Both the position numbers and the translations under genes were made by a program. The notes beneath the pieces were generated by a model that worked only from the letters and a program-made list of their open reading frames with translations, did not search any database and was not told the DNA's origin. Of a DNA stretch of 32,000 nucleotides, positions 8,689 through 29,530 are shown piece after piece (positions within the stretch are counted from its first letter, which is position 1; each line of letters opens with the position of its first letter). The DNA is from a bacterium (GTDB taxonomy: Bacteria; Pseudomonadota; Gammaproteobacteria; Pseudomonadales; Azotimanducaceae), in the NCBI GenBank assembly GCA_047947175.1, contig CP170489.1, positions 1,251,654-1,283,653 on the forward strand. Direction: 5' to 3'.

Positions 8689-8788
8689 GTTGCTGCTCTG
8701 TGAGAAGGTACAGTTTACCCTGCTTGCCTGTGTATTTGCATGGACTTGCGTATACACTGCCCGCCGGTAAACAAAGGGTTGAACCATC

Positions 8789-9430: not shown

Positions 9431-9439
9431 GGGCATCTG

Positions 9440-10903: not shown

Positions 10904-10904
10904 G

Positions 10905-11534: not shown

Positions 11535-11567
11535 GCATGATACCTGAAACAAAAAACAATCAGGTGA

Positions 11568-12026
11568 ATGATGGATGATGGTGCTCAAGCGGTGGACGCA
11601 AGCCGTGCGCGTGAGTCGCTGCTGCAATCTCAGGGTAACCAGTGTTTTGTCTGTGGCCCGGGGAATCCCAACGGACTTGGGGTAACGTTTACGCTGGATG
11701 GCGACGTCTGTCGCGGCGAATTTACGCCTGCTGCCCAGCATATGGGTTACGACAAGGTCACCCACGGCGGCATTGTTTTCAGCCTGTTGGATGATGTCAT
11801 GGCCAACTGGCTCTGGTTGCAGGGCCAGCAGTGTTTTACCGCGCGCGCCGAAATCCGTTATCGGAATCAGCTGCCGATTGGCACACCAGTGCGGCTGGAA
11901 GGCCGCTGTCTGAAACGCAAGAGCCGGCTGGCACAAATGCAGGGGCTGGTGATAAATGCCGCCGACGGCACAATCTACGCTGAAGCGTCCGCCGCCTTTA
12001 TGATTCCACCTGGGCAGGGGAACTGA
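11568..12026 (+). CDS. PaaI-family (hotdog-fold) thioesterase
   Basis: NQCFVCGPGNPNGLGVTF...THGGIVFSLLDDVMANW...RAEIRYRNQLPIG is the typical pattern of hotdog thioesterases with an N-terminal CxxC-like motif. The start could shift by a few codons. Confidence 0.72.
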   Translation: MMDDGAQAVDASRARESLLQSQGNQCFVCGPGNPNGLGVTFTLDGDVCRGEFTPAAQHMGYDKVTHGGIVFSLLDDVMANWLWLQGQQCFTARAEIRYRNQLPIGTPVRLEGRCLKRKSRLAQMQGLVINAADGTIYAEASAAFMIPPGQGN

Positions 12027-12028
12027 TC

Positions 12029-12418
12029 GTGGCGTATGTCACCCTTGTGGTCATGGTTGCCCTGGCGGAATATTTGTATTTTGGCGTTGCAGTCGGGCGC
12101 GCCCGGGCACGCCACGGTGTGGCCGCGCCAGCTGTTACCGGCGACGAGAAGTTTGAGCGCTTTCATCGCGCGCATCAGAATACCCTGGAGCAGCTGGTGG
12201 TATTTGTGCCCGCGGTTTATGCAGCAGGTTATTTTGCAAACCAGTGGCTGGCAGTGGGGATGGGCGTGGTGTTTGTAATTGCCCGCGCGCACTATTTCCG
12301 TAGCTACATAGCCGACCCTGCCCGCCGCGGGGCAGGCATGATCGGCAGTATGTTCGCGGTGGTGACCCTGCTGGCTGCTGCGATGGTTGGCGCTGTGCGT
12401 TACGCGCTCGCCGGGTAG
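12029..12418 (+). CDS. MAPEG-family membrane protein
   Basis: 129 aa with a GTG start and hydrophobic helices. It contains the motif FERFHRAHQNTLEQLVVF typical of MAPEG/microsomal GST-like proteins. Its 3' end overlaps the convergent hydrolase fragment. Confidence 0.78.
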   Translation: MAYVTLVVMVALAEYLYFGVAVGRARARHGVAAPAVTGDEKFERFHRAHQNTLEQLVVFVPAVYAAGYFANQWLAVGMGVVFVIARAHYFRSYIADPARRGAGMIGSMFAVVTLLAAAMVGAVRYALAG

Positions 12419-12729
12419 TGGCGCTGTAACCAATCCAGCATGGCGGCATTGGTGGCCGCAGGTTGCTCCTGCTGTATCCAGTGCCCGCAAGGCAGATGCA
12501 CAACTTCCAGGTTGCTGACAAATTTGTTCAGTGTTGGTGAGCTGGGCACCATATCGTGCTCGCCGTAGATCATCAGCGTTGGCTGATGAACGTGTTGTTC
12601 ATATGCACCTGTTATTTCCCAGTTACGTGAAAAGTTGCGGTACCAGTTGATTCCGCCGGTAAAGCCTGAATGCGCAAATGCCTTGCTGAATACCTCCAGT
12701 TCTGCGTCACTCATCAGCGCATCAGCCGG
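12395..12729. repeat. Left copy of ~335-bp direct repeat flanking the CRISPR-Cas insertion
   Basis: It aligns gap-free at a constant offset of 16010 nt with 28405-28739. I counted 6 mismatches by eye. It covers the MAPEG tail plus the hydrolase 3' end. Confidence 0.9.
12400..12729 (-). pseudogene. 3' fragment (about 110 codons) of the alpha/beta hydrolase gene; duplicate of 28410-28739
   Basis: The translation ...PADALMSDAELEVFSKAFAHSGFTGGINWYRNFSRNWEITGAYEQHVHQPTLMIYGEHDMVPS...GHWIQQEQPAATNAAMLDWLQRHYPASA is near-identical to the C-terminus of the intact 316-aa gene at 28410-29360. It has no N-terminal catalytic part. The MHIN start of the tracked ORF is fortuitous. Confidence 0.88.
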
Positions 12730-13000
12730 GTTAATGTGCAAATAGAATGATTGTTATGGATCTCATATGGTGCTTAATCAACCGGTTCAGCCTTCTGATT
12801 AGAGGTACCAAAACTGGTTTCCCCACCATCCTCAGATTTACTCATTCCAACTCAGCTTGCGTCAATGCCAGCTTGAGTTGTTACCGAATCTGGCGTTTGA
12901 AGAAATCTGAAGTAAGCAGAGTGCCTTGCTGAAATTGGTATGTCGAGAATCGGTAAAGCAAAAAAGAGCACGCTTGCGATGTTAGGCACAATGCTCTCAA

Positions 13001-16000
13001 TTTTTGAGCTGTCTGTGCGGCAGTGAACTGGGCTATGCGCCAATTAGTTTGTATTGCCTATTTCTAAGCTGCCCATGCGGCAGTGAACACTAACGATTGT
13101 GTTACGAGAATAATCTCTGTTTTCTAAGCTGCCTGTGCGGCAGTGAACGGGCGCACAGATACGCTTACAGCGCCTATATTTTTCTAAGCTGCCTGTGCGG
13201 CAGTGAACATTGTAACCCTGAGGCAACATCAGACGGGGCATTTCTAAGCTGCCTGTGCGGCAGTGAACGTCCCGATGCCTGGCTTTTCAATCCGTGGACA
13301 TTTCTAAGCTGCCTGTGCGGCAGTGAACGACAGCCATAACATAGGGCTTCAGCGTTTAAATTTCTAAGCTGCCTGTGCGGCAGTGAACGCTTGTCGCTAA
13401 AGCAAGTAAGTTTTTCGAAATTTCTAAGCTGCCTGTGCGGCAGTGAACGACACCTACTTTGCCGCCCGATTCATTATCTCTTTCTAAGCTGCCTGTGCGG
13501 CAGTGAACTTCGCGCTGTGCGACCACCTGGTTTGGTGGCTTTTCTAAGCTGCCTGTGCGGCAGTGAACACAAAGAATTCGAGGACTTTATTGACAGTGTT
13601 TTTCTAAGCTGCCTGTGCGGCAGTGAACGTTAGTCGTGTAATTTGAGGCTTTGATGATTCTTTCTAAGCTGCCTGTGCGGCAGTGAACTTTAGTCAACCA
13701 TGCCGCGCCACGCGGATTAGTTTCTAAGCTGCCTGTGCGGCAGTGAACATATTGCAACGGCATTCCCGTATTCGATCAATTTTCTAAGCTGCCTGTGCGG
13801 CAGTGAACGTTTCTCTGCAGCCAGTGCAGCCTCAACACCATTTCTAAGCTGCCTGTGCGGCAGTGAACGCAAATAGATACCCAACACGCACGGCCTTGAT
13901 TTTCTAAGCTGCCTGTGCGGCAGTGAACTTCATCGACCATGACCTGAATTTCATTTGTCATTTCTAAGCTGCCTGTGCGGCAGTGAACGCTTGTATGACC
14001 GCATCACTGTCTCGATAGATTTTCTAAGCTGCCTGTGCGGCAGTGAACCAGGGAGTTCCAGGCCGCTGGCTATGATTTTCTTTCTAAGCTGCCTGTGCGG
14101 CAGTGAACGTGAGTACCAATCAGGCTACCGCATAAGCTCTATTTCTAAGCTGCCTGTGCGGCAGTGAACGTCTAAGTCACTCATCCCTGTTCTCCTGTGG
14201 TTTTCTAAGCTGCCTGTGCGGCAGTGAACCAAGAGATAAAGGACCCTCAGCCACCACAGGATTTCTAAGCTGCCTGTGCGGCAGTGAACGCATTGAACCA
14301 TACCGTCAACAGCAGACTCTTTTTCTAAGCTGCCTGTGCGGCAGTGAACTTGTACAGCCTGACCACTCAGTCCAATGAGGTTTTCTAAGCTGCCTGTGCG
14401 GCAGTGAACGCGCGGAAGGGCATGCAAGCGAATATTTCGGCTTTCTAAGCTGCCTGTGCGGCAGTGAACGCTAGAAGTGTTTCCGCGTCTTGAGGCTGTA
14501 TTTTCTAAGCTGCCTGTGCGGCAGTGAACTGGGTGATTGGCTTTATCACATTCCGAACGGTTTTCTAAGCTGCCTGTGCGGCAGTGAACATCTGCCGTTC
14601 GCACTCCCTAGCTGCCGCTGTTTTCTAAGCTGCCTGTGCGGCAGTGAACTCATGGCCGAGAAGCGCAAAGAGGCCGTGGATTTTCTAAGCTGCCTGTGCG
14701 GCAGTGAACCTCGACCAGCCGTGTCATGCAGATGTGTTGCTTTTCTAAGCTGCCTGTGCGGCAGTGAACTTTTTGGTTGGCGACCCTGCCCACGTTTGTA
14801 TTTTCTAAGCTGCCTGTGCGGCAGTGAACTTGACACCGCTCAAGTTGGCATCGCTCAAGTATTTCTAAGCTGCCTGTGCGGCAGTGAACTGTTTTCTACA
14901 TATGGCAAGGCATATCTGGATTTTCTAAGCTGCCTGTGCGGCAGTGAACTGAAGCCATCGCCAAGCCCAAACCTATTACAATTTCTAAGCTGCCTGTGCG
15001 GCAGTGAACGCAGCACCCCCACGGTTTGCTATCTGCTCGGATTTCTAAGCTGCCTGTGCGGCAGTGAACGCGATGAGGGTGGCTGTAGGCTCGCTGCGAA
15101 TTTTCTAAGCTGCCTGTGCGGCAGTGAACTTTGGGTCGCTATGAAAGTAAGAGAACAACAATTTCTAAGCTGCCTGTGCGGCAGTGAACGATGATGATTT
15201 TCAGGCGTGGACGCGCCTGCATTTCTAAGCTGCCTGTGCGGCAGTGAACATGTACGTGTCGACGTTTGCGGCCGTGATCCATTTCTAAGCTGCCTGTGCG
15301 GCAGTGAACGTGTAGATCGCCGCTTTCGCAATGGCAACCGTTTTCTAAGCTGCCTGTGCGGCAGTGAACGCAGATCCTCAAAGCGTTTTTTTCAATTGGT
15401 TTTCTAAGCTGCCTGTGCGGCAGTGAACGGTGTGGTCAACAGGTACCTGCGCGCTGTGGTTTTCTAAGCTGCCTGTGCGGCAGTGAACGACGGTAGGCCG
15501 CGAGATTCATATCGTGGATTTTTCTAAGCTGCCTGTGCGGCAGTGAACGAAGCGGAAGAATGCAACGAAATCATCGCTTTTTTCTAAGCTGCCTGTGCGG
15601 CAGTGAACACACCGTAACCATCTTGCTCGCTGTCGCGCCATTTCTAAGCTGCCTGTGCGGCAGTGAACGTAGGTGTCCACTCATTAAAATCACTCATCAC
15701 TTTCTAAGCTGCCTGTGCGGCAGTGAACATCTCGCGCTCTATTCTAGCTACCGCGTCAACTTTCTAAGCTGCCTGTGCGGCAGTGAACTAACCCTTGTGC
15801 AATGTACGTGCATTTAATAATTTCTAAGCTGCCTGTGCGGCAGTGAACGCTCAGCGTATCTGCTTAATACGGCTGCAAGATTTCTAAGCTGCCTGTGCGG
15901 CAGTGAACGGTATCCCGCAGCTATCAGGATCTCCTTGCTATTTCTAAGCTGCCTGTGCGGCAGTGAACATAAGCCTGCTGCAAAGCTTGGTAGACCAAAA

Positions 16001-16688
16001 TTTCTAAGCTGCCTGTGCGGCAGTGAACTCCACGATAACGAATTCCATAACGTTCAATTTTTTCTAAGCTGCCTGTGCGGCAGTGAACACCTCGCCCCAG
16101 TCCTTATGGTAAAGCCTGCGTTTCTAAGCTGCCTGTGCGGCAGTGAACCATTACACAGATGATGACTGGGCCATAGTTGATTTCTAAGCTGCCTGTGCGG
16201 CAGTGAACGCCAAGTGTTTTTTAGTCCTGCCTCTGGGGTATTTCTAAGCTGCCTGTGCGGCAGTGAACGCGCACAACGTAGAGCCGCACATTAGAAAGAA
16301 TTTCTAAGCTGCCTGTGCGGCAGTGAACTGAATCGTTTTTTCTTATTGTTGGCCTTAATATTTCTAAGCTGCCTGTGCGGCAGTGAACCTTTGTGGCTGG
16401 CACATCGGTAGTCGGTGACATTTCTAAGCTGCCTGTGCGGCAGTGAACGCCTTTTGGGTGCCCCATTATCTCTCTATGTATTTCTAAGCTGCCTGTGCGG
16501 CAGTGAACTAAGCAGTGGTTGGCGCGGTTTTCACAATGAATTTCTAAGCTGCCTGTGCGGCAGTGAACATGCGCGACCTGAACCTGGTGGTGCGGTTGTT
16601 TTTCTAAGCTGCCTGTGCGGCAGTGAACTTAATGGCGTTTATCATCGTTCGCGGCCTTTCTTTCTAAGCTGCCTGTGCGGCAGTGAAC
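13001..16688 (-). CRISPR. Type I-F CRISPR array, 62 repeats / 61 spacers
   Basis: The 28-nt repeat GTTCACTGCCGCACAGGCAGCTTAGAAA (minus strand) is the I-F consensus type. Period is 60 nt. There are 59 spacers of 32 nt, one of 33 nt (14109-14141) and one of 31 nt (15370-15400). The two repeats at the 13001 end are degenerate (13001-13028 with 3 mismatches, 13061-13088 with 2), which marks the trailer. The cas operon and an AT-rich leader lie on the 16689 side. Confidence 0.98.
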
Positions 16689-16859
16689 TGCAGTATAAGC
16701 CACAAAAACGTTGCGATAACAAAGGCTTAGCGCAATATTCCACGTTTTACCAATGAAAGCTTGGTTAGTTCTAACCGATTGATTTCTAATTAGTATTTTG
16801 AACAGCAAAAAAGATTGGTGTTCCAACACTCCCCGATAGCACCTTATGGCTACCTCGCT
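16689..16859 (-). promoter_or_regulatory. CRISPR leader (AT-rich) with IHF-consensus-like site
   Basis: This 171-nt AT-rich non-coding stretch abuts the non-degenerate end of the array. The minus strand at 16772-16784 reads AATCAATCGGTTA, matching WATCAANNNNTTR. It overlaps the palindrome GGTTAGTTCTAACC (16763-16776). Confidence 0.55.
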
Positions 16860-18257
16860 TTAGGTCTCGCCCAAACAGGACTGTATGAAACGCGGCGCCT
16901 GCCCAACCAGATACAGCGGAAGCGAGAGCAGTTCATACTCTAATGCCGTTCCATCAGTCAATTTTTTGTTGTCAATCCACAAACTGGGGACATCTGCATT
17001 AAACCGCAATGCGAAATGACGCTGTTTTTCCTTTAAAAACTGGTGCAGTGATTTCAGTGTGCCTGTCGTGCCCGCTTTGATTTCCACCGGCACTACGTGC
17101 CGACCGCTGGTTAGCAGGTAATCTACTTCTGCCGCTGCGCTTTTTGCCTCTCGCACCCAGTAATAGAGCATCGGCAGATCAAAATACGGACCACTGTAGA
17201 GTAACTGCTGCCCGATAAACTGCTCGGCAAGTTCACCATTGTTCACCAGGCATAGATCCTCTTTGCTGATATCTAACACATTGAGGTTGAGCGCAGCACA
17301 CATGAGACCAACGTCCATATACAGGGTTTTGAACACGCGGGGATTGGCCTCGGCCCCTAGAGGGATTCCATTAGCGGATGAATGAATCACTCTGGCAGCA
17401 ACCCGCGCCATGCACAATTGCTGCAATGCCGCCTCTAGTTCCGCTGCGCGATGGTCGCGACTGATCTGTGCATACTTGAATTTTCGACCTACCATGCGCG
17501 GCAGACGGTCAAATACCAACTGCACGCGGTACTTTAGGGTGCCCTGGCTGTATTTGTTGAAGTCATCGCGATAGGTGGCCACGATACTGTGATGCACGTG
17601 GGCGACATCAGCAAAATCGCCCGATTGCACATAGCTGGCCACCGCCTCTGGCAGACCACCCACGATCCAGAACTGTTTCAGCAAAGAGAGACTCTTTTCG
17701 TGCACAACCCTGGGTAAGCGTTGCGCGCGAATATCCTCCAATGAGAGTTGTTGCAGGTAATGCACCAGTTCCAGCTGCCCCATGGCCTCAGCAAAATCTT
17801 CAAATTGCATGGGCCCTAGGTGCAAGTATTCGACACGGCCGACCGGCATGGAGAACTGAGCCTCCTCGAGCGCAAACTCCAGCAAGGAACCTGCGGCCAG
17901 TACATGTAGATCTGGCGTCTCCTCATAGAAGTAACGCAGGGTGGTCAATGCCTCTGGCGCAGCCTGGATCTCATCGAGGAACAGCAGAGTAGTGCCGGGT
18001 ACGATCTTAGCGCCGGTCAGCAGCTTCAGGACAGCTTGGACTTGCACCGGATCCTTACTGGTGAACGCCTCGCTGTACTCGGGATTGCGCTCGAAGTTAA
18101 TCTCAAGCAATGAGAGGCCGCTGGTCTCTGCAAACTGCCGCACCAACGTTGACTTACCCACCTGCCGCGCACCTCTGATAATCAAAGGCTTGCGGGGAGT
18201 CCGTGCAGCCCAATTGATCAGATGGGCCAGTTCTCTACGATTGAGTAATTGAGCCAT
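16860..18257 (-). CDS. AAA+ ATPase with C-terminal PD-(D/E)xK-like module (AAA_14/DUF4143-type architecture as I recall it), 465 aa
   Basis: Walker A is GARQVGKST (aa 29-37) and Walker B-like is LLFLDEIQ. The C-terminus EVDYLLTSGRHVVPVEIKAG reads as a D...ExK nuclease core. It lies on the same strand as the cas genes, between cas6f and the leader. Confidence 0.82.
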   Translation of the reverse strand: MAQLLNRRELAHLINWAARTPRKPLIIRGARQVGKSTLVRQFAETSGLSLLEINFERNPEYSEAFTSKDPVQVQAVLKLLTGAKIVPGTTLLFLDEIQAAPEALTTLRYFYEETPDLHVLAAGSLLEFALEEAQFSMPVGRVEYLHLGPMQFEDFAEAMGQLELVHYLQQLSLEDIRAQRLPRVVHEKSLSLLKQFWIVGGLPEAVASYVQSGDFADVAHVHHSIVATYRDDFNKYSQGTLKYRVQLVFDRLPRMVGRKFKYAQISRDHRAAELEAALQQLCMARVAARVIHSSANGIPLGAEANPRVFKTLYMDVGLMCAALNLNVLDISKEDLCLVNNGELAEQFIGQQLLYSGPYFDLPMLYYWVREAKSAAAEVDYLLTSGRHVVPVEIKAGTTGTLKSLHQFLKEKQRHFALRFNADVPSLWIDNKKLTDGTALEYELLSLPLYLVGQAPRFIQSCLGET

Positions 18258-18301
18258 GGTTGTATTTACCTAGTGCTAAAGCTGGGAAAATACGACTTGA
18301 A

Positions 18302-18329
18302 TTGATATTTTACAACCTTGTTATGTCAA
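18302..18329 (-). promoter_or_regulatory. Candidate sigma70 promoter for the ATPase gene
   Basis: On the minus strand, TTGACA (18329-18324), a 16-nt spacer and TATCAA (18307-18302). It sits in the 145-nt AT-rich gap between the cas6f stop and the ATPase ATG. This is a sequence match only. Confidence 0.35.
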
Positions 18330-18402
18330 TATTTTATATATTTAACAGCCTTATTTAACCAAGGGATGCACGTTGGACAATATTTTGGCCCTGCAGCCGG
18401 AT

Positions 18403-18954
18403 CTAAAACCATGGAATCGTTGCGATTTTCGAAAGACCAAACTGATCAAAAGTGCCTTCAACAGGATTATCCAGCAATGGCCCAAATTCTAGATAGCGGC
18501 GATGCCTATGGCCATTTGAGCCGCTTTTCAACTCAATGTAGGGGTTATCCAGACCCTTATTGAACATCTTGGCTTTGTATGCGTTGACTTGATCTCCTGT
18601 GATTGTTCCCCGCTTTAGCAAACGATTTAACTTGGCGTTGCTCATAGTTGTTTGCTTGCGGGAAACAACACGAAATTTTGCACCTGTAGGCACAAGCTCT
18701 ATATTGCTCGGTTCACAATACTCCCTCATCCCTCCTATCCAGTTAAGACTTTGGAGTTTGCCCAATGCTTCTGCGGTACCGTGGATACGCATCAGGTCGC
18801 CAAGCGTTTTCTTATACCTTGGGAAACTAACACCAATACTTACGGAGTGTAGATGGCAAAGGGCTTTGTGAGCTTTGCTAAAGACCGCATTCATCAATAT
18901 TGTTGAATTGAATTCTGGGTCAGGCTTAAGTCGAATATCAATGTAGTAGTCCAT
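18403..18954 (-). CDS. cas6f: Cas6f (Csy4) crRNA endoribonuclease
   Basis: MDYYIDIRLKPDPEFNSTILMNAVFSKAHKAL...IGVSFP... is collinear with Pseudomonas Csy4 (MDHYLDIRLRPDPEF...). It is the last gene of the csy operon. Confidence 0.95.
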   Translation of the reverse strand: MDYYIDIRLKPDPEFNSTILMNAVFSKAHKALCHLHSVSIGVSFPRYKKTLGDLMRIHGTAEALGKLQSLNWIGGMREYCEPSNIELVPTGAKFRVVSRKQTTMSNAKLNRLLKRGTITGDQVNAYKAKMFNKGLDNPYIELKSGSNGHRHRRYLEFGPLLDNPVEGTFDQFGLSKIATIPWF

Positions 18955-18957
18955 GGC

Positions 18958-19977
18958 CTACCCCGCATCCCCAAATACACCGCCGCGAATCAAGGTTGCA
19001 ACGATGAAGTGCTGTTGTTCCGGATCAGGGGTTTTACCTTTGAGAATCCATCCATCTAGCAGGTTATAAAAATCCATTTTTTGCTTTGGTTGGCGATAGG
19101 CTTTTCCCTGAGTTGTTACAGAGCCGTAGGGTTCTACGGCGATGGGCCCCATTTCATCAGCACCTTCATACCACGTATCAATAGTTCGCAAAGCATTGCC
19201 AATTTTCTGCGAGTGCATTGCAGCGATGTTATCGACGTCATAAAGCGTTTTACTCTTGTCGCCTCGCCCGCGTTCTAATATTAGTTCCTGCGATGGATAT
19301 ACTTCCTGGCCAGCTCCGATTCGAACCAAAGCCAAAACTTCCAGCAACACATGCTGCTCACCAAGAAACCCCTGCTCGATCACTTTGGTTAAAGCTTCAA
19401 GATCAGCAGGTTGGGAAGAAAAATCGCGGAGTGAAAAATCCAGCGCGTCAAATTTCCAATGAGCTATAGCTTGTCCGTCACGCAGCTGTGAAACCTGCAC
19501 TTCAATCGTCTCCGCTCCTAAGCGGTTGCGCCATAGAAAGCGGCCATTAGCCAGATTAGTGGCATAACGTTTTGACAACTCTAAAAAGCCAATGTTTTTT
19601 ACATATCCGTTAATGCTGTCTTGAAGTTTTGCCTGGTAGTCTGCACTGTTACAGGCAGATGGCCTCCCCGTGCCTGGCAACACCCGGAGGGAGAAAACTA
19701 CTTTTAGCGTATCCAAATCGCCAGGAAGCGACGCAACGTCAACAGTTTGCAGGTTTGGATTTTCAATTGCAGCATCCAGTTTTGCAGGATCCTGGTCTTT
19801 GGTCTTTAACCGGTTAGAAATTGTGCCTCGCACCGATTTTTCCTGGATACGAACTGCGGGCCAGCTATGGTGATTTTTTCGATCATCCCAGTTACCTGCG
19901 TAAAATTGTGCATCAGAAGGATCGAGCTTACGTTCGAAGGCCAATACAGAAGCAGTTTTCAATGTGTCTTTACTCAT
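18958..19977 (-). CDS. csy3: Csy3 (Cas7f) Cascade backbone subunit
   Basis: 339 aa. Position and size are canonical. The N-terminus ...[25 protein letters not shown]... is Csy3-like. Confidence 0.93.
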
Positions 19978-20006
19978 GGTTGTTTCCTTTGCTTTGTTGA
20001 ATTGAA

Positions 20007-20987
20007 CTAGTCGTAGTCAAATTCGGGGGTAAGGCTGTACACGAAACCGTTTTTGCAGCGGTATACGCCGTTATCAGGTTGATATTCGGCATACCACAAC
20101 AATTGCTGAATTTCCTGAAGTCGATGCGGGCTGATCCACTGGCCGATGCCGTAAAGACTTTCAACAAAACGGAAGTCGGTCTGCATATCTCGGGCATTGG
20201 CGACGGTTCCCGCCGCTTGTAATTCGGTTAGAGCGCCATAGCCTAGCGGGATGGGGACGATCCAGCCTTTACGGTCGTGCTGCCACCCTGCTTTTTCAGG
20301 ATTTTCTCCATCGGTTTGCCAGCGCCAGTTAAACCGTGAAAGTGATAGCCAGGCATCGAGCCGCGTACAGTCCGGAGTTTGATTGCGCATTTCTTCAAAG
20401 CGTTGATCAAGCAAATCCTGTCGTTCCACCAACGCAAAGCCAGGCAATAAATGGCGTTTTAATTTGGCGAATTGCTCATATCGTGTTTCGCCGTCACTGC
20501 TGATTGGCAGAATGTAGGGCGTGAAGCGCTTTTGTGCGCCGGGTTGTGGCAGCACCGTACCACCGGCGATGCGCATTTCTTCGATTAATTGTTTAATCTG
20601 TAATGCCGTGTTCTGTGCTTGCTCGTGATCGTTCAGACTTTGACTTTGTAGAGCGAAAACCAGGCTAATCGTCATATGCATGCGACCCTCTTCTACAATG
20701 GCCGCTGTTGAGCCGTCTTTGCCGATGGGATTGCGTGTTAATCGAAAAGATTTTGCATAGTAGTCATCAGTGACTAGTTCCTCATAGCCATGTGCCACTA
20801 CGCCAACGGCGTTTAACATTAAATCCATTCCCGCCGCGTGCATCTTGCGTTCCAAGGCCCACATTAGCCCAATAAAAGCGCTGATTGCCGGGAAGCCGTG
20901 AGTTAGCGAGCCAGAAATTGCGTTGGCGTTTTGTACGCGCAGCCGGGGAATAACCAAAATTTGGTCAAAGTGAGGAAGCTCAGTCAT
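20007..20987 (-). CDS. csy2: Csy2 (Cas5f)
   Basis: The start at 20987 ([41 protein letters not shown]...) overlaps the csy1 stop in ATGACTGA. Size (326 aa) and position are canonical for I-F. Confidence 0.92.
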
Positions 20988-22347
20988 GGCTGAACTCCTG
21001 TGTGTCGTCCGCGTGCATTTTAGGCTTAGTCGTAGGCAGCCACCCCGCATCTGCAAGCGCTTGCTTTGCCCAGTGTTTTAACTCTGCGTCACCCACCGGC
21101 AAGTCCTCTTCGCGAAGAATGGCGTTTAGCCACAGTGCAAAATCAGTGGCCACCTGATCTGGCCAGTCGTTCCATTCCAGCGCTTGTTGAAATTCGCGAT
21201 CTTCAGCTTCGAAATCCGGTTGCAACGCCAATTCGGCCCGATCCATATCCAGCCAGATTTTTTGATGCAGTGGCAAATCACATTCAGGGTTGCGTGTCCA
21301 GCCAGGCTCGTACCCGTATCGAATTTCACCGCCGAAATTCGCTAATGCCTGCGCGAGCGCTTGTTCGATACGTTCGCGCTTTTGGCGAGTATCTATGGTT
21401 TTTTCCGGATCACTTTTTAGCAGAGTAATCAGTCTTTTGAGCAGCAGATTTGTATCTTCGAAACTGCGAAATCGTTTTAGCGCACTTCCTATTCCTAGAT
21501 ACGACTTTTGATCGGGGTGTATCCATTTCGGAGGGCAACAGGAAAGCAGATAGTTAACACCACCGCGCTCGCTGTTGAGCTGACTGATGTTTTGAGGCTT
21601 GGTGCCTCCCAGCTTGCGCACGGAAAGGTTAGGGTAATTGCGATAAGTTCCATTGTGTGGTGTTTTGGCGTAATAAGCCTTACGTACCTCCTTATTAAAT
21701 TCTCCATAGCGGGCATCATTTAATTGGGAATGTACTACGTGTAGCAGGCTGCTCGGAAAGAGTGTTTGCAGCAGGTGAAAATTTTCGTCATTGCTGGGAT
21801 CGCCGGATATGCACCAGTAAACTTGCTTGGCCATCGTATGCGAGATAAGGCTATCGCCCGCTTGTGCTAAGCCTTTGAATGCTTGCGCCCATTTCTGGCT
21901 CAGTTCGGTGTCAGCGTGGAAGGCAGCGAGCAGATCTGGATCGTCTTGCTGTAACCAATCGAGTAGCCTTCTGTTTTCAACTTCGATTTTCAAAAATTTG
22001 TATACATCAAGGGCTGCTGCATTCCCGACGATGTCGTCGTCGTATTCGTGGCCGAGGTTATGCGTACCGATTTCCGTTCGCTCAGGAAGTGTGTTTAACG
22101 CAATATGCAAACTGGTGCCACGCGCATCTGGGTGGCTTGCCTTCAAGATATGGGTTACCGCTTGAATCTGCGAAACACGGCGCGCAGCGTCTGCGATCCA
22201 AGCGTGGTATTCGTATTTGGCCTTGGCTTCTGCAGCTTTTTGGGCGCTTAGACCCTTAAGTTTCGTCTCTCGCCGGTCGACGATAAAGTCGCTTATCGCT
22301 TGACGAAAGTTGGTCGCACGTGGCGATAGGGAAGGTAGCGTACTCAT
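20980..22347 (-). CDS. csy1: Csy1 (Cas8f) large subunit
   Basis: 455 aa. The N-terminus ...FRQAISDFIVDRRETKLKGL...KYEYHAWIADAARRVSQIQAVTHILKASHPDARG is typical of Csy1. It is the first gene after cas2/3. Confidence 0.92.
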   Translation of the reverse strand: MSTLPSLSPRATNFRQAISDFIVDRRETKLKGLSAQKAAEAKAKYEYHAWIADAARRVSQIQAVTHILKASHPDARGTSLHIALNTLPERTEIGTHNLGHEYDDDIVGNAAALDVYKFLKIEVENRRLLDWLQQDDPDLLAAFHADTELSQKWAQAFKGLAQAGDSLISHTMAKQVYWCISGDPSNDENFHLLQTLFPSSLLHVVHSQLNDARYGEFNKEVRKAYYAKTPHNGTYRNYPNLSVRKLGGTKPQNISQLNSERGGVNYLLSCCPPKWIHPDQKSYLGIGSALKRFRSFEDTNLLLKRLITLLKSDPEKTIDTRQKRERIEQALAQALANFGGEIRYGYEPGWTRNPECDLPLHQKIWLDMDRAELALQPDFEAEDREFQQALEWNDWPDQVATDFALWLNAILREEDLPVGDAELKHWAKQALADAGWLPTTKPKMHADDTQEFSHD

Positions 22348-22486
22348 AATGGAGATTCCTGGTTCGACTTAAGTTCTTCAAAACACTAGTTTCCCAAAGC
22401 GACATCCTGTGGGGATCGTCATGACAAAAACTAAGATGTTCTGATCATACATATGTCACAATGCTTATCTGTCCTCCTTAGTGCGA

Positions 22487-25400
22487 TCATGCGCGTACTT
22501 GGGTGTCATACGAAGTCGTCAATTTTGGTTGCTTCTTCAATCCAAAACCCAGGGCGGGATGAAACCACCAACCTTGGGTGCTTTCCGTTACATTCACTAC
22601 TGTAAATTTTTGCGCGCAGGTTCTTAGTGGTAGCTCTTGTGCTTCTGCCAATTCTCGTAACAGAGTAATCAGATCGAATTCCCCCCAAAGGCTTACACCT
22701 CGACCAAAATCCAAATTCAGAGTGTGAAGCCGTCTTTCTTCTGCGGTATAGATTGCTCGTTTACCTTTAGAGGCCTGCTGGTGCACACGGTGCAACAGCA
22801 ATTTTTCTTCATCGTCGTCGGGTAGAAACAGTAAGGTCTCCTCTCGTACTTGATTTAATCGAAAAGGCTGATGTTGAGGTAACGCCCAAGTTAGAGCCGC
22901 CTGTGGATAAAGCCAATTAGAAGCAGCATTAAGTCGTGTACCAGTCGGCTTTTCACCTCGCACAAGCGGTGTTGAGGACCTTTCTACAGGTAGCATGCAT
23001 TGCGCGAGACGGCTGTGTTCCAGATCCACCAAACTACTTTGCGAATCCCATGGTTGTGATTGCGGAAATATGCGTGGTTTGGCTGAGATGATTTTGTATT
23101 CGTCCTCGCGTAGAAGTTTTTCGAGGTTGTGTGAGTTAAGTCGGAAGAGATCGTGGGGATCTTTGGACTCTAGTTCAAACCCAGGTTTGACAAAGACAGC
23201 ACTGCCCTTCTCCTGATAAAAATGGCGCAGGTTCTTATTAAAAATTAAAATGTTGGGCCGCTCGCAGGTTTTTTGGCGGTGGCGCTGTACTCGGCCCGCG
23301 AGCTGAATTAAAGAGCGCATAGAAGAGGGCTCAACAATTGCCCAATCGTAATCATGGTCACGACCCACTTCCGTAACCGGGGAGCCAAGTACGACAAAAA
23401 TATGGTTTTGCTCCGAATGGGTGTCCAAGCTCTCCCTGATAACCTGCTGTTCGTACACCGCGCTGGGTTGTCGACGGTTGAGAGTAGTATCGAGTTGGTG
23501 CTCAATCCTGGATCGCAACAGCAGCGGAAAACGCGAGTGATAGACACAAATATGAAGATGTACGTTGGTTGGGGCATCGCCCTCAAACAAGGTTTTCGCC
23601 ATGCAAAGTAGAGGCTCAATATTGGCCATGCGCACAAGGCCGAAACTGACGCGTTTGCCACTGACTGGACAGATTTCAAAGTGCGCTTCATGCGCCTCTA
23701 AGATGGCGTCTCGAACAGGGACGGCAAACTCACCCGCAACTTCCTCGAGTTTTTTTCCCTGAAAAGTTAAAGGCTTTAAAACGCCGCGCCGTTTGGCACC
23801 ATGTTTCTTGATGGATTTATCCAGCTGATTCACTCGTCGATCAATAAATTCCAGGTGACTTTTTGAAAATTGATCTCCTGTTGCGCAGCTGTAGGCGCGT
23901 GTCGTGAATTCGTCGACCCAGAGACAAGGTATATCTAGCTGTGCTGTTCCTTGCTTGCCGGCTGCGCTACGATTTCGGAAAAAATGCTGGCGTCCAGCCA
24001 AATAGGCTTGATACATGCCCTCAACTAGCGATGGGGGAAGTGTGGCCGACGAAATTAAAACACGTGTGCCTAATAATCCTGCCCAATGAATGAGACGCGT
24101 GAGCGCAGGCAGGTCATTGATATCGAAATCATCCAACTCGTCCAGCACCAAGTCGCTGCTCATTAATCTAAGCATTGGCGCAATTTGTCTACCAGCGCGT
24201 TGTGCTTCGGTGGCTGGCATCAAGTGATCTATCGTGCAGACCAGCACAGGAGCCGCTAGTAGTTTTTTAATTTTCGAGTCGGAGAGTACTTTAGATAAGA
24301 TTGGGTGTTCCTCGAGCAAGCCTTCGTATTCGATGTAGCCGTCTTCTTCGATTAACTCCTGCACTGATGCAGAACCCGTGCTTTCTGCCTGTTCTTCATA
24401 ATAGTCGAACAAGGCGTGGCTGGCTGAACCGCCTACTCGTATCGCCAGTTCGTCTTCATCTAAATGCAGATCTTCCCGATAACTTCGACCAGTTTGCAAA
24501 GTGAGCGTGCGCAGGCCAAGCGCGAAGGACACTCGCATACCTTCCTCAGGCTTGGCGAGGGCATATAAAATACGCGCATTGGCTAAGGTTTTACCGCAAC
24601 CGGTGGATGCCATGTTAATTATGAAAGCTCCATTTTTTTCTGAGGCTTCACGTATTTTTGTTGCTGCATCTGCTGCTTTGTCCTGCCAGCGAAAGTGTTC
24701 TAAACGGCTACGCTTTTTTAATCCTTGATGCGCCGCCAATCTTGGTAACCCCTTCTCTATGACTGGCAAGCAATGAGCAATACTGCCAGAAAGACGCGCA
24801 ACACCGAGCAAGTGTTCCGTCAATGTTTGTTTGAGTGAGCCGTCTTTATGTGTATTTGCATATATTGCATCGTCTACGTCACCCTGCTCGCGTTCTTTGG
24901 ATTCCGGCGGCAGTGAGGAGTAGTGATGATCAGCGAGCATCAGAGTTAAACGTGAAAGATGCATAACATAGGGATTGTTCAGCCAGGCTTCCGGATGATT
25001 GTTTTTAAGTTGTAGTAGCTTTTCCGCTAGCTTGGCCAAACGTTTGCGCCACTTGGGAAAACTAAAAGGCAATTTTTCCTTGAATGACCAATATGATTTT
25101 ATCGAAGTGGATTCATTCGACTGAGGGATTTCATTCCAGTTTGCTTTGACAGCTAACAGTGGGTCTGCCAACTGAGACGCAGAAAAATTCATTGACGGCT
25201 TTCCTAGATACTGTTGGATGCCATCGAAATCGTAGGACGGAATCACCGGTAGACGATGGTGCGTAACAACCAACCAAGCAATAGCAGCAGCCAACGGCTG
25301 TAAATCTGTAAAAGGGGCTGGAGTTTCCTTGTCGATACCATCACGCCAATAGCGACCATTTTGTGTCCAACTTGCGTCGTCCGAGTCCGTAGGTGAAATC

Positions 25401-25915
25401 ATTCTGCGCAGCCACCTTTCGTCCTCATCGTTGCCGACAAAAGCAAGAAAGAGACGTAATGAAACCCATTCGTGGCGATAGATATTTTTTTCGTGAAGAT
25501 TCTTTTTGAGACGATTTTGAAACGCGATACTTGCTTTGCCGAGGTCGTGTAGCAAAGCCGCAATCTGTGAAAGTAGTTTTATGTCCTCCGCGCTGTACCA
25601 ATCATCATCCATATCGGTTTTGAGCACGGCCCGGTGGGTAGAGTTAACCGGTACTCGGCCATCTTCATCAAATTTGTTGCGGTTGCCCACCACCCAAACC
25701 AACTCCGAACGGCTTCTGCTCCGTATCCAATGACAACTCACCGCTGTATTCTTGCTTGCGGTTTTTCGCAATAGTTTTTTTACGGCCTTTAACCCTTCCT
25801 CAGTAATTACTGTCTGCCAGGTATTGTCGCCAATACGATCGGCAAATGCGTCGAGCACCCGCCGGGTACGGCCGAGCGCCTTTTTCTCACACTGGGAAAC
25901 AAATGTGACCATCAT
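22487..25915 (-). CDS. cas3: Cas2-Cas3 fusion (Cas3f) nuclease-helicase, 1142 aa
   Basis: The N-terminal Cas2 domain (VSQCEKKALGRTRRVLDAFADRIGDNTWQT) is collinear with P. aeruginosa Cas2/3. It also has the HD motif LLHDLGKASIAFQ, helicase Walker A ASTGCGKT and DExD-like LDELDD. Confidence 0.96.
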   Translation of the reverse strand: MMVTFVSQCEKKALGRTRRVLDAFADRIGDNTWQTVITEEGLKAVKKLLRKTASKNTAVSCHWIRSRSRSELVWVVGNRNKFDEDGRVPVNSTHRAVLKTDMDDDWYSAEDIKLLSQIAALLHDLGKASIAFQNRLKKNLHEKNIYRHEWVSLRLFLAFVGNDEDERWLRRMISPTDSDDASWTQNGRYWRDGIDKETPAPFTDLQPLAAAIAWLVVTHHRLPVIPSYDFDGIQQYLGKPSMNFSASQLADPLLAVKANWNEIPQSNESTSIKSYWSFKEKLPFSFPKWRKRLAKLAEKLLQLKNNHPEAWLNNPYVMHLSRLTLMLADHHYSSLPPESKEREQGDVDDAIYANTHKDGSLKQTLTEHLLGVARLSGSIAHCLPVIEKGLPRLAAHQGLKKRSRLEHFRWQDKAADAATKIREASEKNGAFIINMASTGCGKTLANARILYALAKPEEGMRVSFALGLRTLTLQTGRSYREDLHLDEDELAIRVGGSASHALFDYYEEQAESTGSASVQELIEEDGYIEYEGLLEEHPILSKVLSDSKIKKLLAAPVLVCTIDHLMPATEAQRAGRQIAPMLRLMSSDLVLDELDDFDINDLPALTRLIHWAGLLGTRVLISSATLPPSLVEGMYQAYLAGRQHFFRNRSAAGKQGTAQLDIPCLWVDEFTTRAYSCATGDQFSKSHLEFIDRRVNQLDKSIKKHGAKRRGVLKPLTFQGKKLEEVAGEFAVPVRDAILEAHEAHFEICPVSGKRVSFGLVRMANIEPLLCMAKTLFEGDAPTNVHLHICVYHSRFPLLLRSRIEHQLDTTLNRRQPSAVYEQQVIRESLDTHSEQNHIFVVLGSPVTEVGRDHDYDWAIVEPSSMRSLIQLAGRVQRHRQKTCERPNILIFNKNLRHFYQEKGSAVFVKPGFELESKDPHDLFRLNSHNLEKLLREDEYKIISAKPRIFPQSQPWDSQSSLVDLEHSRLAQCMLPVERSSTPLVRGEKPTGTRLNAASNWLYPQAALTWALPQHQPFRLNQVREETLLFLPDDDEEKLLLHRVHQQASKGKRAIYTAEERRLHTLNLDFGRGVSLWGEFDLITLLRELAEAQELPLRTCAQKFTVVNVTESTQGWWFHPALGFGLKKQPKLTTSYDTQVRA

Positions 25916-25952
25916 ATCGCGTCGCCTTCATCTAGTTTGGCACACTTGTTAA

Positions 25953-26915
25953 TCACGCTGTTACATCCTTGCCCTGATGATGTGATAGCGCAACTGTCTT
26001 CACTTGATCAAACATAAAATCAAGTGCTTTATGGTCTGTAAAGGCTTGCAGGCACTGCTGCCGAAATTCCTGTTCGGTTGCCTGTTCATTCGCACAGATG
26101 AAAGCCCAGGGCAGCACAAGACTATCCTTCACCAGGTCCGCGATATCGAACACCAAAGCACCACGGCGGGTCTTCCCGTGCATCACGGCGAAACCATGCG
26201 GAATACCCAGCACCCATAGTGTGGTGGCGGCCAGGCCATAGGCAAGGTAATTCCCGTGGTTGAGAAAAGCATTGGCATCGTCGACGGCGTCCCGTTTACG
26301 CACGAATTTGGTCTGCTTGGTCCGATTGGCCGCAACCTTGTAGAGGTGTTTGGTCAGTTCCGCCTCCAGTTGCAGAAGCTTTCCAACTGTGGGGGCGTGT
26401 GTGATTCCTTCAAGGCTCGTTAACAAGGCACCATGAATATCTTCGTCCCCGACATCGAAGCCTGCCCCAAGAAGGTTCCGGTCTTTCGACCAGACCATAC
26501 GCATGAATTCGATTCGCGCTGTCTGAAAAAGCTTGGCAGCCTCAAGACGCTTCTGCCCGTCGAACCAGAATTGCATCCAGCCCTGGATATATTCGGTGGG
26601 ACGGTATTCGCTCTGCGGTGACAGCCACTCTATTTCCGTCGCCATAAGTAATGGCGTAGCCCCGCCACCACAAAATCCGACCAGCACACCGGCGGAAGCC
26701 AGCATACGCATGGCGGCCTGTGTAATGGACGTCCCCGTGCCGAGTAACAAGCAGGTGGTGTTGGCGATTGGTATGTTCCAGTACTGGTTTTCATTTCTGG
26801 CCTCAGTAAGATAAAGTACGCGCCCATCCTTTTGCATCACGCGGCACTTTTCGAGGTAGTAAATGTTGGCTCTCTTGGATTGAAGTATAGCTTTCAGATC
26901 AGTTAGCGCTTCCAT
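25953..26915 (-). CDS. cas1: Cas1, type I-F
   Basis: ILQSKRANIYYLEKCRV...YWNIPIANTTCLLLGTGTSITQAAMRMLASAGVLVGFCGGG...LNHGNYLAYGLAATTLWVLGIPHGFAVMHGKTRRGALVFDIADL is near-collinear with P. aeruginosa I-F Cas1. Confidence 0.96.
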   Translation of the reverse strand: MEALTDLKAILQSKRANIYYLEKCRVMQKDGRVLYLTEARNENQYWNIPIANTTCLLLGTGTSITQAAMRMLASAGVLVGFCGGGATPLLMATEIEWLSPQSEYRPTEYIQGWMQFWFDGQKRLEAAKLFQTARIEFMRMVWSKDRNLLGAGFDVGDEDIHGALLTSLEGITHAPTVGKLLQLEAELTKHLYKVAANRTKQTKFVRKRDAVDDANAFLNHGNYLAYGLAATTLWVLGIPHGFAVMHGKTRRGALVFDIADLVKDSLVLPWAFICANEQATEQEFRQQCLQAFTDHKALDFMFDQVKTVALSHHQGKDVTA

Positions 26916-27092
26916 GGGTCACCATTGCCATCGACTGACCAACATCCACCTTCAGGCCGCATCCTGTTGCTTGCGAGCAGTGAAAAATCTTCCCACATCT
27001 CCTGATCTCCTTCGGTGGTTATTCGACAACTACACCTTAGCCACCCATGGTGTCAAAATCGTAACTGGTAATTTATACAGCATTCCTGGTTG

Positions 27093-28076
27093 TTAGAGTC
27101 GGGACGCTTTAATTTCTCCCGTGTAGTGGGCAATAGACTGTTTAAGCCGGCCAAGCACCTCGTGCTTGAGCGAATCTGGTCCCTCGACAATACAATCCGG
27201 CACGTGGCGGAGGATGTCTTGCACCAGTTCAGCGGGTTCGCTGAAAGGGATGGTTAGCAGATAGTCTTTCTTGTCCCACTTGCCGGTCTGGGCGGGGTGC
27301 CAGCGTTGGCTGGCTATTTCCCTGGCGATGCGTGGTAGAAAACGTAACATGGCCGTTTGTGTCGCCGCACCGCTGAAAACGCCGTAGCTGCTCTTGGCAA
27401 ATGCATCGAGTTTGGAATCGTCGATCTCTGCGCAGTCTTCGTCCGTATCGCGGCAGTGTTCGATCCGCGCCAGCGAGAAAATACGTAGACCATCACGCAG
27501 ATGACACCAGGCATCTAGATACCAGTTGTCGCGATAGTACACGAGCCGCTGTGGGCTTACGTTTCGTTTGCTCAACTTCTGGTTAAAGTCGCGATAACGA
27601 ATATGTAGCTGATTGCGATCTACGAGTGCGTTCAACACATGATGCAAACGGTGATCTGGTAAGGTGCGCTGTCCTACTGGCACGATGCGAATCCGTCGCT
27701 CCAGATCGGTTCTGGAGACTCCTCGTTTTTCCAGCATCCGATCAACACTGCTCCGAACCCCGCGCAGTTCGTCATCCATCAAACCGTTGCCAAAACGGCT
27801 GAGAATATCGAGCAGTAACAACAAAGACTGCGATTCTTCTCGTGTCATCCAAAGACCCGGTACTTGCCAGCGGTCTCGTTCATCAGAATCATAGCGCCAG
27901 CCAAGATGCGGGAGGTGTTCCAACGGCGCTTCCCAATAATCCTGCAGGTCGTCAAGATAGCGCTTCACTGTCCTTTCTGAACACTCGAGTCTTCTCGCCA
28001 GATCGCTTAACGATATCGGTGTCTTCCGTGAGTCAAGGATCTGGTGGCAGCGGTAGAGTTGATCAAACTTTCGCAT
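27093..28076 (-). CDS. HTH + WYL-domain transcriptional regulator, 327 aa
   Basis: The N-terminal HTH is ISLSDLARRLECSERTVKRYLDDL. The central WYL domain is HIRYRDFNQKLSKRNVSPQRLVYYRDNWYLDAWCHLRDGLRIFSLARI. There is a C-terminal extension typical of PafBC/CapW/BrxR-like proteins. It is on the same strand as cas1 and 177 nt upstream of it. Confidence 0.85.
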   Translation of the reverse strand: MRKFDQLYRCHQILDSRKTPISLSDLARRLECSERTVKRYLDDLQDYWEAPLEHLPHLGWRYDSDERDRWQVPGLWMTREESQSLLLLLDILSRFGNGLMDDELRGVRSSVDRMLEKRGVSRTDLERRIRIVPVGQRTLPDHRLHHVLNALVDRNQLHIRYRDFNQKLSKRNVSPQRLVYYRDNWYLDAWCHLRDGLRIFSLARIEHCRDTDEDCAEIDDSKLDAFAKSSYGVFSGAATQTAMLRFLPRIAREIASQRWHPAQTGKWDKKDYLLTIPFSEPAELVQDILRHVPDCIVEGPDSLKHEVLGRLKQSIAHYTGEIKASRL

Positions 28077-28404
28077 GGGGATAGCCTCTCGACTGTTCGG
28101 ATAGTCACTATAACTGCCTTGGTTCTACTGAGCCAAAGGTATGGAATACCCGTGATTCGATGCGAATGCGTAGTACAGCGGTGAGTTCCAACCGGACGTA
28201 CCCGCAGGTTAGCCCGTGGGGGGCAATCTACTGATCTTGGCGGTATTGAAGCAGAGACCACCAGACCTGGGTTATACCCTGCCCTGGAAAGGATAGGAAG
28301 AATTGACGCGGTTCTGCCGTTGACATGAAAGTATCAGCGGATTCTGGATAAGTTTGGACTGGAGCCCAGTTGGATCATAGGGTGATCGAACGCACGCTTG
28401 AGTG

Positions 28405-28739
28405 GTGCGTTACGCGCTTGCCGGGTAGTGGCGCGGTAACCAATCCAGCATGGCGGTATTGGTGGCCGCAGGTTGCTCCTGCTGTATCCAGTGCCCGCAA
28501 GGCAGATGCACAACTTCCAGGTTGCTGACAAATTTGTTCAGTGTTGGTGAGCTGGGCACCATATCGTGCTCGCCGTAGATCATCAGCGTTGGCTGATGAA
28601 CGTGTTGTTCATATGCGCCTGTTATTTCCCAGTTTCGTGAAAAGTTGCGGTACCAGTTGATTCCGCCGGTAAAGCCTGAATGCGCAAATGCCTTGCTGAA
28701 TACCTCCAGTTCTGCGTCACTCATCAGCGCATCACCCGG
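28405..28739. repeat. Right copy of ~335-bp direct repeat flanking the CRISPR-Cas insertion
   Basis: See the left copy. It begins with an orphan MAPEG tail GTGCGTTACGCGCTTGCCGGGTAG (VRYALAG*) and continues into the 3' third of the intact hydrolase gene. Confidence 0.9.
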
Positions 28740-29360
28740 CATAGTTTGCGCTTCGGCAATGCGGATCATGTTCATGCCGGCAGGTAGATCCGGTGGCGGC
28801 GAGTGCCATTGATTGGTGCGATACAGATTACGTAGAAACTGTTCCCGGTGTGCCGCAAAGGCTGCATCTGCAACCCCAGGTTGGCGGTTGAAGTGGACAA
28901 TGTAGAAGTCGCCACCCAGATGTTTCTCCCAGAAGCCGACCCATTCGGTTGGGCCGCGCTCCATGAAAGGCACGCTCAAATTCACCACGCCGGCCACCCG
29001 CTCACGGTGCATCATTGCCAGATTCCAGACAATAATGGCGCCCCAGTCGTGACCCACAAACAGCGCATCTTCGTAGCCGAAGTGATCGAGCAGACCCATC
29101 AGATCATCAGTGAGGTGCGTGATGTCGTAGTCGGTTACCGCGTCAGGTCGGCTGGAATGGCCGTAGCCGCGCTGGTTGGGTGCAATCACGTGATAGCCGG
29201 CATCTACCAGCGGCTGTATCTGATACCGCCAGGAAAACGCATGTTCAGGCCAGCCGTGGCACAGCACAATGGGTCTGCCGGCACCTGCACTGAATACTTC
29301 GAGCTCGATGCCGTTGGTTGAAATCATCTGAGGTTCGGGAAAAGAAAACGCCTGGGACAT
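28410..29360 (-). CDS. Alpha/beta hydrolase, epoxide-hydrolase-like, 316 aa (intact copy)
   Basis: It has the HGWP oxyanion motif (LCHGWPEHAFSWRYQ), the nucleophile elbow GHDWG and a C-terminal GHWIQQEQP. This is typical of epoxide hydrolase/haloacid-type alpha/beta hydrolases. Confidence 0.88.
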   Translation of the reverse strand: MSQAFSFPEPQMISTNGIELEVFSAGAGRPIVLCHGWPEHAFSWRYQIQPLVDAGYHVIAPNQRGYGHSSRPDAVTDYDITHLTDDLMGLLDHFGYEDALFVGHDWGAIIVWNLAMMHRERVAGVVNLSVPFMERGPTEWVGFWEKHLGGDFYIVHFNRQPGVADAAFAAHREQFLRNLYRTNQWHSPPPDLPAGMNMIRIAEAQTMPGDALMSDAELEVFSKAFAHSGFTGGINWYRNFSRNWEITGAYEQHVHQPTLMIYGEHDMVPSSPTLNKFVSNLEVVHLPCGHWIQQEQPAATNTAMLDWLPRHYPASA

Positions 29361-29530
29361 GCGAGGGCTCGGTAGATGGGGTTAGCGCATTCTAAGGTGA
29401 ATTCTGCATAAGGTGAAATCAGCCCCGTGCTGTGAGGGTGTCATCTGTCGCCGGACGGGGTGTATGGCTTACCAGAGTTTCGAGCGTAACCGGGTAGTCT
29501 CTCAATGCCTTCATTCACGGAGATATTCTT

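Follow-up and report, generated by a model that had tools for sequence, protein, structure and literature searches.

The 32,000-nucleotide (nt) stretch of bacterial contig CP170489.1 analyzed here (the window; positions 1,251,654 to 1,283,653 of assembly GCA_047947175.1, family Azotimanducaceae) carries a complete type I-F CRISPR-Cas system as a block of 15,675 bp (12730 to 28404) lodged at the junction of two convergent host genes, one encoding a MAPEG-family protein and the other an alpha/beta (epoxide-hydrolase-like) hydrolase. The block consists of a CRISPR array and its leader, an ATPase gene, six type I-F cas genes, a gene for a WYL-type regulator, and two noncoding ends, and it is bracketed by two direct copies of a 335-nt segment of the host junction. 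Its G+C content is 49.8%, versus 56.7% in both flanks, a composition foreign to its surroundings. The same gene content had been read from the DNA in a preliminary description of the locus, and comparison with Pfam, NCBIfam, PADLOC, and Rfam confirmed it.

The two repeat copies align without gaps at a constant offset of 16010 nt and differ at six positions (98.2% identity; 12409, 12425, 12447, 12607, 12625, and 12725 in the numbering of the left copy), as established by a repeat search, a MAFFT alignment, and an exact count. Similarity stops abruptly at both ends, the longest unbroken run of identity is 159 nt, and the pair is the sole long direct repeat in the window besides the CRISPR array. 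It cannot be a product of chance. The repeated unit comprises the last 110 codons and the stop codon of the hydrolase gene together with 5 nt past the stop. Its share of the MAPEG gene, the final 24 nt, is owed solely to the 19-nt overlap between these convergent genes. On the left, the unit adjoins an intact MAPEG gene and its hydrolase portion is truncated; on the right, it forms the 3' end of an intact hydrolase gene, completing a 316-amino-acid open reading frame (ORF). Computational alignment, ORF calls, and Pfam matches thus bear out the repeat pair and the gene junction that the preliminary description had recognized by eye. In the NCBI annotation, the left hydrolase leftover appears as a 104-amino-acid fragment (P0127/XOV84728.1), eight genes away from the full hydrolase (identical to P0123/XOV84737.1). 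Both copies have a host-like G+C content of 54.3%, and a 4-nt CCGG match at the inner junction (12726 to 12729), beyond the last mismatch, is a possible microhomology.

An empty version of the site is present in relatives of the window, which are marine Pseudomonadales-type metagenome-assembled genomes (MAGs). On a 1.56-Mb JGI contig (L081), reached through the nearest hydrolase cluster (88% amino acid identity), the hydrolase and MAPEG genes converge with a 19-nt overlap and are single copy, and the gene order on both sides is that of the window. By blastn, window positions 2413 to 12729 are collinear with L081 20950 to 10622 in one 10.4-kb match, and window positions 28405 to 29361 match L081 10956 to 10000. 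The L081 segment from 10622 to 10956 aligns to both window copies, and the breakpoints fall exactly at 12729/12730 and 28404/28405, so that each copy runs without a break into one host flank. Relative to L081, nothing was deleted from the target at insertion and 335 bp was duplicated. A second empty site was found on L173, where the hydrolase gene is cut by the contig end, and the convergent hydrolase-MAPEG pair is widespread in related MAGs and duplicated in none of them. The preliminary description had called for a search for such sites, and the genes are convergent and single copy there as it had foreseen; neither of two findings that it had named as contrary to its view, a duplication in cassette-free relatives or membership of the unit in a multi-copy repeat family, was seen. 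The geometry is that of an insertion-duplication of the block into the MAPEG/hydrolase junction, with 335 bp of target duplicated.

No integrase or transposase domain was detected in the block or in any flanking ORF of the window, no tRNA gene was found in the window, and the island ends share neither a terminal inverted repeat of at least 8 nt nor any inverted or direct 8-mer, in agreement with the preliminary description. The gaps between genes inside the block measure at most 328 nt, and therefore no recombinase gene can be hidden there; the two noncoding island ends hold no integrase remnant, and their small ORFs are featureless. Viewed as an integrase-borne island or prophage, the block has the flanking direct repeats with a rebuilt target gene and lacks a recombinase within the element. 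The possibility, raised at the outset, of an integrase just outside the region was pursued as far as the window extends, that is, 12 kb to the left and 3.3 kb to the right of the block, the whole window being 32 kb of a 4.64-Mb genome; within this reach none was found.

Other kinds of mobile element were considered and rejected. A transposon or insertion sequence composite would not account for the block, which has no transposase domain and no terminal inverted repeat and whose target duplication is 335 nt. A Tn7-like (I-F3) CRISPR-associated transposon was set aside because there is no transposase and because the block has cas1 and cas2/3, in contrast to I-F3 elements, and a casposon because there is no PolB, there are no terminal inverted repeats, and Cas1 is an ordinary I-F adaptation gene. 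A tRNA-targeting island does not suit a window without tRNA genes, and the unit, being a gene end that is single copy in relatives, is not a multi-copy repeat.

The features of the window are collected in Table 1. All cas gene calls exceed the NCBIfam or Pfam cutoffs. With cas1, the cas2/3 fusion, csy1, csy2, csy3, and cas6f in one operon, and with 28-nt repeats and spacers of ~32 nt adjoining that operon, the system has both the genes and the array of type I-F (I-F1). The 61 spacers are all unique and 31 to 33 nt long; the 60 leader-proximal repeats share one sequence, and the two most distant from the leader are degenerate. No spacer fully matches the rest of the window (longest exact match, 14 nt), and no full spacer match is shared with the related loci described below.

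Table 1. Repeats, island features, and adjoining host genes, with window coordinates
Feature	Coordinates	Strand	Basis
MAPEG-family gene, intact, 129 amino acids, left host flank	12029..12418	+	Pfam PF01124, E 1e-20
Left repeat copy	12395..12729		Continuous with left host flank in alignment to L081
Hydrolase 3' leftover, nonfunctional (last 110 codons and stop)	12400..12729	-	ORF list
Island left end, 271 nt noncoding, past last array repeat, G+C 43%	12730..13000		No ORF of note
Type I-F CRISPR array, 62 repeats of 28 nt, 61 spacers	13001..16688	-	Rfam CRISPR-DR4, 61 hits; script count
CRISPR leader, 171 nt	16689..16859	-	Position; 68-75% identity to leaders of L174 and L177
AAA_14 + DUF4143 ATPase, candidate defense gene PDC-S01	16860..18257	-	Pfam; PADLOC PDLC04788, E 1e-148
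cas6f (csy4)	18403..18954	-	Pfam PF09618, E 9e-57
csy3 (cas7f)	18958..19977	-	TIGR02566, E 1e-134
csy2 (cas5f), start set at internal ATG	20007..20987	-	TIGR02565, E 2e-87
csy1 (cas8f)	20980..22347	-	TIGR02564, E 3e-104
cas2/3 fusion (Cas3f)	22487..25915	-	TIGR02562, 1164 bits
cas1f	25953..26915	-	Pfam PF01867; identical to P0135, NCBI name Cas1f
HTH-WYL-WCX regulator	27093..28076	-	Pfam; PADLOC cas-associated WYL
Island right end, 328 nt noncoding, one promoter-like site toward WYL	28077..28404
Right repeat copy	28405..28739		Continuous with right host flank in alignment to L081
Alpha/beta (epoxide-hydrolase-like) hydrolase, intact, 316 amino acids, right host flank	28410..29360	-	Pfam PF00561

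The AAA_14/DUF4143 ATPase (P0255) is a candidate defense gene and not a mobility gene. In all of the related I-F cassettes seen (L163, L165, L168 to L170, L174/L175, and L177), a gene of this kind (PDC-S01) lies between cas6f and the leader, and such a gene also occurs on its own (L166) and behind a Gp49/HTH_37 pair (L171). Some of the ATPase-bearing related loci share conserved sequence with the 54 nt upstream of the ATPase gene (18303 to 18356) and with the leader. Our literature search found no work linking DUF4143 or COG1373 to CRISPR, I-F systems included.

The host genes on either side are all ordinary metabolic or housekeeping genes, with products that include LysR, rhamnosidase, nitrile hydratase, SelU-like, Sel1, and PMSR proteins and, further, Pyridox_ox, Hsp70-like, NUDIX, thioesterase, and TM2 proteins and a Cys/Met pyridoxal phosphate (PLP) enzyme. 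The MAPEG protein and its L081 orthologue are 91% identical from end to end, and relatives of the hydrolase in a scan of genome contigs reach at most 74% identity among the matches listed. The E. coli genomes gave no match, and the source is accordingly not enteric. On L173 (555 to 576), the hydrolase and MAPEG genes stand 20 nt apart, versus the 19-nt overlap on L081 (10933 to 10951) and in the window, and the junction itself therefore varies among relatives.

A gene-end duplication of the same geometry was found at a related cassette (L168), where a direct repeat (17214 to 17476 and 19693 to 19955; 263 nt, 93% identical, 7% divergent) consists of 32 nt upstream of ydjM together with the first 77 codons of that gene and lies directly beyond the end of the CRISPR array. 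Between these repeats is a 2.2-kb insert with three ORFs (250, 70, and 97 amino acids), none of which has a Pfam or PADLOC match or a recombinase domain. In Paenibacillus (L044 9935 to 11925; also L046 and L069), a homologue of the hydrolase gene is followed by a 219-amino-acid ORF and then by a 62-amino-acid 3' fragment of the same hydrolase, with a 348-amino-acid ORF alongside, and the arrangement is conserved in three species. Gene-end duplications around small inserts are thus recurrent.

Cassettes with the same gene order as the block (WYL, cas1, cas2/3, csy1 to csy3, cas6f, ATPase, leader, and array) occur elsewhere, with Cas1 79 to 87% identical to that of the window and nucleotide identity of only ~70 to 79%. 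Their contexts differ: they adjoin a PadR gene and a chromate transporter gene (L163/L164) or a PIN gene (L174), end beside ydjM (L168), or lie near a Phage_AlpA gene (L172), and the WYL gene is upstream of cas1 in L163, L168, and L174. This type of cassette has clearly been transferred horizontally. For the block itself, there is no evidence of recent movement: the preliminary description had suggested seeking the same cassette in other contexts, and relatives were indeed found there, none of them near identical, so that recent mobility as a unit can only be inferred. The island ends (12730 to 13000 and 28077 to 28404) match none of the 185 loci fetched. Each related cassette was covered at one end at most, its contig stopping in the array or the flank running out ~150 nt too early. 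Among viral contigs of IMG/VR, Cas1 matches reach at most 73% and no relative of the ATPase was found, and a metagenome scan with the WYL regulator returned relatives of at most 43% identity, too distant to inform on other contexts of the cassette.

Several of these cassettes also differ from the block in detail. In L172 (166 to 363 and 3130 to 4086), which has the closest outside Cas1 (87% amino acid identity), that gene lies 2.8 kb from the Phage_AlpA gene, a marker of integrase-bearing islands, and two unknown genes and a small WCX/RHH protein gene take the place of the WYL regulator. ORF6N/pRha-like and Fic-like genes stand between cas1 and cas2/3 in L163 (10954 to 11836), L164, L172 (4083 to 4349), and L177 (812 to 1912) and not in the window; the interval between cas1 and cas2/3 seems to be a variable slot in the cas operon. 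In L168, an 80-nt remnant of the ATPase 5' end (9272 to 9351 versus 10100 to 10179; 80% identity) lies between cas6f and an HTH_37 gene, which suggests that the HTH gene may have been inserted into, or swapped in with, the ATPase module.

It had also been proposed that the pattern of differences between the two repeat copies might reveal which of them came in with the island. We compared both copies with L081 and eight more distant orthologues, and the outcome was mixed or ambiguous, singling out neither copy. Three of the six differences are synonymous, and the states at these sites are ambiguous; three are nonsynonymous. At 12725, the right copy has the state common to all orthologues, and at 12447 it is the left copy that has the orthologue state; at 12425, the Pro of the right copy occurs in some relatives and the Gln of the left copy in none. 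Derived nonsynonymous states therefore number two in the left copy and one in the right.

How the block came to be inserted can be explained in several ways. The preliminary description had offered a Campbell-type crossover or a site-specific event catalyzed in trans; insertion as a block with duplication of the target stands, and nothing at the locus separates these two routes from each other or from a duplication in situ. We rank a Campbell-type single-crossover insertion of a foreign 15.7-kb defense cassette first, ahead of site-specific integration and then of duplication in situ, and we hold this preference tentatively. The incoming DNA would have been a nonreplicating circle carrying the cassette and, beside it, the terminal ~330 nt of a hydrolase gene that came from a closely related strain, and one RecA-type crossover between the circle copy and the resident gene would have integrated the whole circle. 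The product would be the MAPEG gene and one unit, the cassette, and a second unit with the rest of the hydrolase gene, leaving both host genes intact with no need for an element-borne recombinase. The 1.8% difference between the copies fits the arrival of one of them from a conspecific donor. In Escherichia coli, single crossovers of circular DNA yielded target duplications of 109 to 950 bp and were far commoner than one-ended illegitimate events (PMC3240628). By analogy, the ydjM duplication of L168, with the same geometry and no recombinase domain, may be counted in favor of such a crossover.

The circle may itself have arisen by aberrant excision of an island that once lay just past the hydrolase stop codon, as in specialized transduction, with 335 bp of the hydrolase gene picked up and the integrase end left behind. 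Such an origin would account for the end of the unit at the stop, the lack of an integrase, and the arbitrary position of the inner breakpoint (12729/12730), and we infer that it would reconcile a single crossover with site-specific integration.

Several observations weigh against a Campbell-type insertion. The outer end of the unit lies 5 nt past the stop codon, for which we estimate a chance of ~2% had the homology been captured at random, and an end at the stop is in keeping with a gene end brought by the element, as in site-specific integration. The absence of an integrase applies to the 32-kb window, and one acting in trans could be encoded elsewhere in the genome. A near-identical cassette or donor was not found elsewhere, the best Cas1 match being that of L172; a DNA search of PLSDB plasmids returned only a 264-nt cas1 match in Legionella, and a protein search of plasmids gave at most 37% identity for the ATPase and at most 43% for Csy1, with no close plasmid copy. 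With the closest Cas1 at 87% amino acid identity, nucleotide identities of ~70 to 79%, and no close plasmid match, movement of the locus as a unit, as envisaged in the preliminary description, is a conjecture. The nearest outgroup (L081) is only 79% identical to the unit at the nucleotide level, and therefore the six differences are not cleanly polarized; judged from these sites, their pattern would fit import of an allele as well as decay in the leftover fragment, and divergence after a duplication in situ is equally allowed. Finally, the sequence basis is the assembled sequence of one MAG, a single contig of 4,636,606 bp.

A second account, favored by the boundary at the stop codon, is site-specific integration into the hydrolase 3' end by an attachment (att) site carrying a replacement gene end, with the integrase since deleted or acting in trans and the island a remnant like a cis-mobilizable element (CIME). 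The copy beside the intact gene has just enough sequence to rebuild that gene, and the pattern of ending at a gene end recurs in L168 (32 nt before the ydjM start) and in the Paenibacillus loci. The Phage_AlpA gene near the closest outside Cas1 is typical of integrase-bearing islands, and at the mismatch 4 nt from the inner boundary it is the leftover fragment that carries the derived state, which may postdate integration. The island, however, contains no integrase or excisionase and has no room for one, neither flank supplies one within the distances scanned, and its two noncoding ends retain no trace of one. In addition, 98% identity over 335 nt is far above what is expected of an att region traveling with a promiscuous element, and both cases with readable inserts (the window and L168) are free of recombinase domains. 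We regard this account as unlikely, although it comes next after the single crossover.

Somewhat less likely again is a duplication in situ at the time of insertion, in which a 335-bp tandem duplication would have taken up foreign DNA at its join, whether through unequal sister-strand joining, template switching during replication, or a one-ended homologous plus illegitimate event, and mutation would later have set the copies apart. The G+C content of both copies is host-like, the two resemble each other far more closely than they do any orthologue, the leftover fragment holds two of the three derived amino acid changes, as expected of a decaying pseudogene, and the CCGG match at the inner junction could be microhomology. 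Homology-facilitated illegitimate recombination, however, normally yields deletions and not duplications (PMC3240628), divergences of 1.8% in the window and 7% in L168 demand long survival of repeats that RecA can delete, and a duplication in situ gives no reason for the boundary at the stop codon. An assembly artifact, a chimera of two co-occurring strains, is suggested by the MAG source and by a copy difference of 2%, typical of strain mixtures, and is nonetheless very improbable, because the fragment and the full gene are both in the NCBI annotation, eight genes apart, because the independently assembled L168 has the same kind of structure, and because the 12729/12730 junction would be absent both from an island strain without the duplication and from an island-free strain and must therefore come from real reads.

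A broader scheme can be imagined on the basis of the recurrent gene-end duplications in L168 and Paenibacillus: defense cassettes of these marine gammaproteobacteria, entire CRISPR-Cas loci among them, might circulate as integrase-free, nonreplicating DNA with a short copy of a host gene end as an "address label," entering and leaving chromosomes purely by host homologous recombination. We consider this scheme improbable. Were it true, the duplications of several hundred base pairs here and at ydjM in L168 would be the regular footprint of a general and overlooked mobility route.

Where a mobile element cannot be seen, the means by which complete CRISPR-Cas loci move are often unclear. This locus is a clean example: both junctions are exact to the base, a relative has the empty site, and no recombinase is in sight. 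It shows that insertion-duplication can put an entire I-F system in place, which host recombination could then, in principle, precisely remove. The preliminary description had seen the system as poised for precise RecA-dependent loss or re-acquisition. With 159 nt of unbroken identity between the copies, loss is a sound prediction: RecA recombination between the repeats would cut the block out exactly and bring back the empty site. That the block could also be regained in this way is speculation. If the same footprint were found around many defense cassettes, it would point to recombinase-independent gain and loss of immune systems; the present case, one locus in one MAG, is a record of a known type of scar, neat but not unprecedented, and not of a new mechanism.

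Among known systems, e14 and phage 21 integrate in the 3' end of icd with an element-borne replacement gene end. As in icd, the target gene here is rebuilt from the element-side copy, the original 3' fragment is displaced to the far end, and the repeats are hundreds of nucleotides long; unlike e14 and phage 21, the island has no integrase or excisionase, its copies are 98% identical and not clearly diverged, and its cargo is made up of defense genes only. CIMEs are cis-mobilizable, att-flanked islands without an integrase, whose repeats are the att sites of a known integrative and conjugative element (ICE) integrase. The present island is likewise flanked by direct repeats and lacks recombination and transfer genes of its own, but its repeats are a host gene end with no known cognate integrase. 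Vibrio type I-F systems are reported to lie mainly on mobile genetic elements (PMC6360697); the island resembles those described there as a complete I-F system on horizontally acquired DNA and differs from them in having no mobility gene. Homology-facilitated illegitimate recombination was put forward for type VI secretion system effector-immunity arrays with orphaned 3' ends (PMC5361080), where, as here, foreign DNA is gained without a recombinase of its own, through one homologous anchor, and gene-end remnants are left; that process usually deletes target DNA, whereas here nothing was lost and 335 bp was duplicated. Compared with Campbell-type insertion-duplication (PMC3240628), the island is a natural 15.7-kb CRISPR-Cas cassette without a plasmid backbone, its circle would be a reconstruction, and its homology ends almost at a stop codon; like such insertions, it is bracketed by direct copies of one contiguous host segment that occurs once in the empty site, each copy runs on into one flank, no recombinase of the element takes part, and the event would be reversible by homologous recombination.

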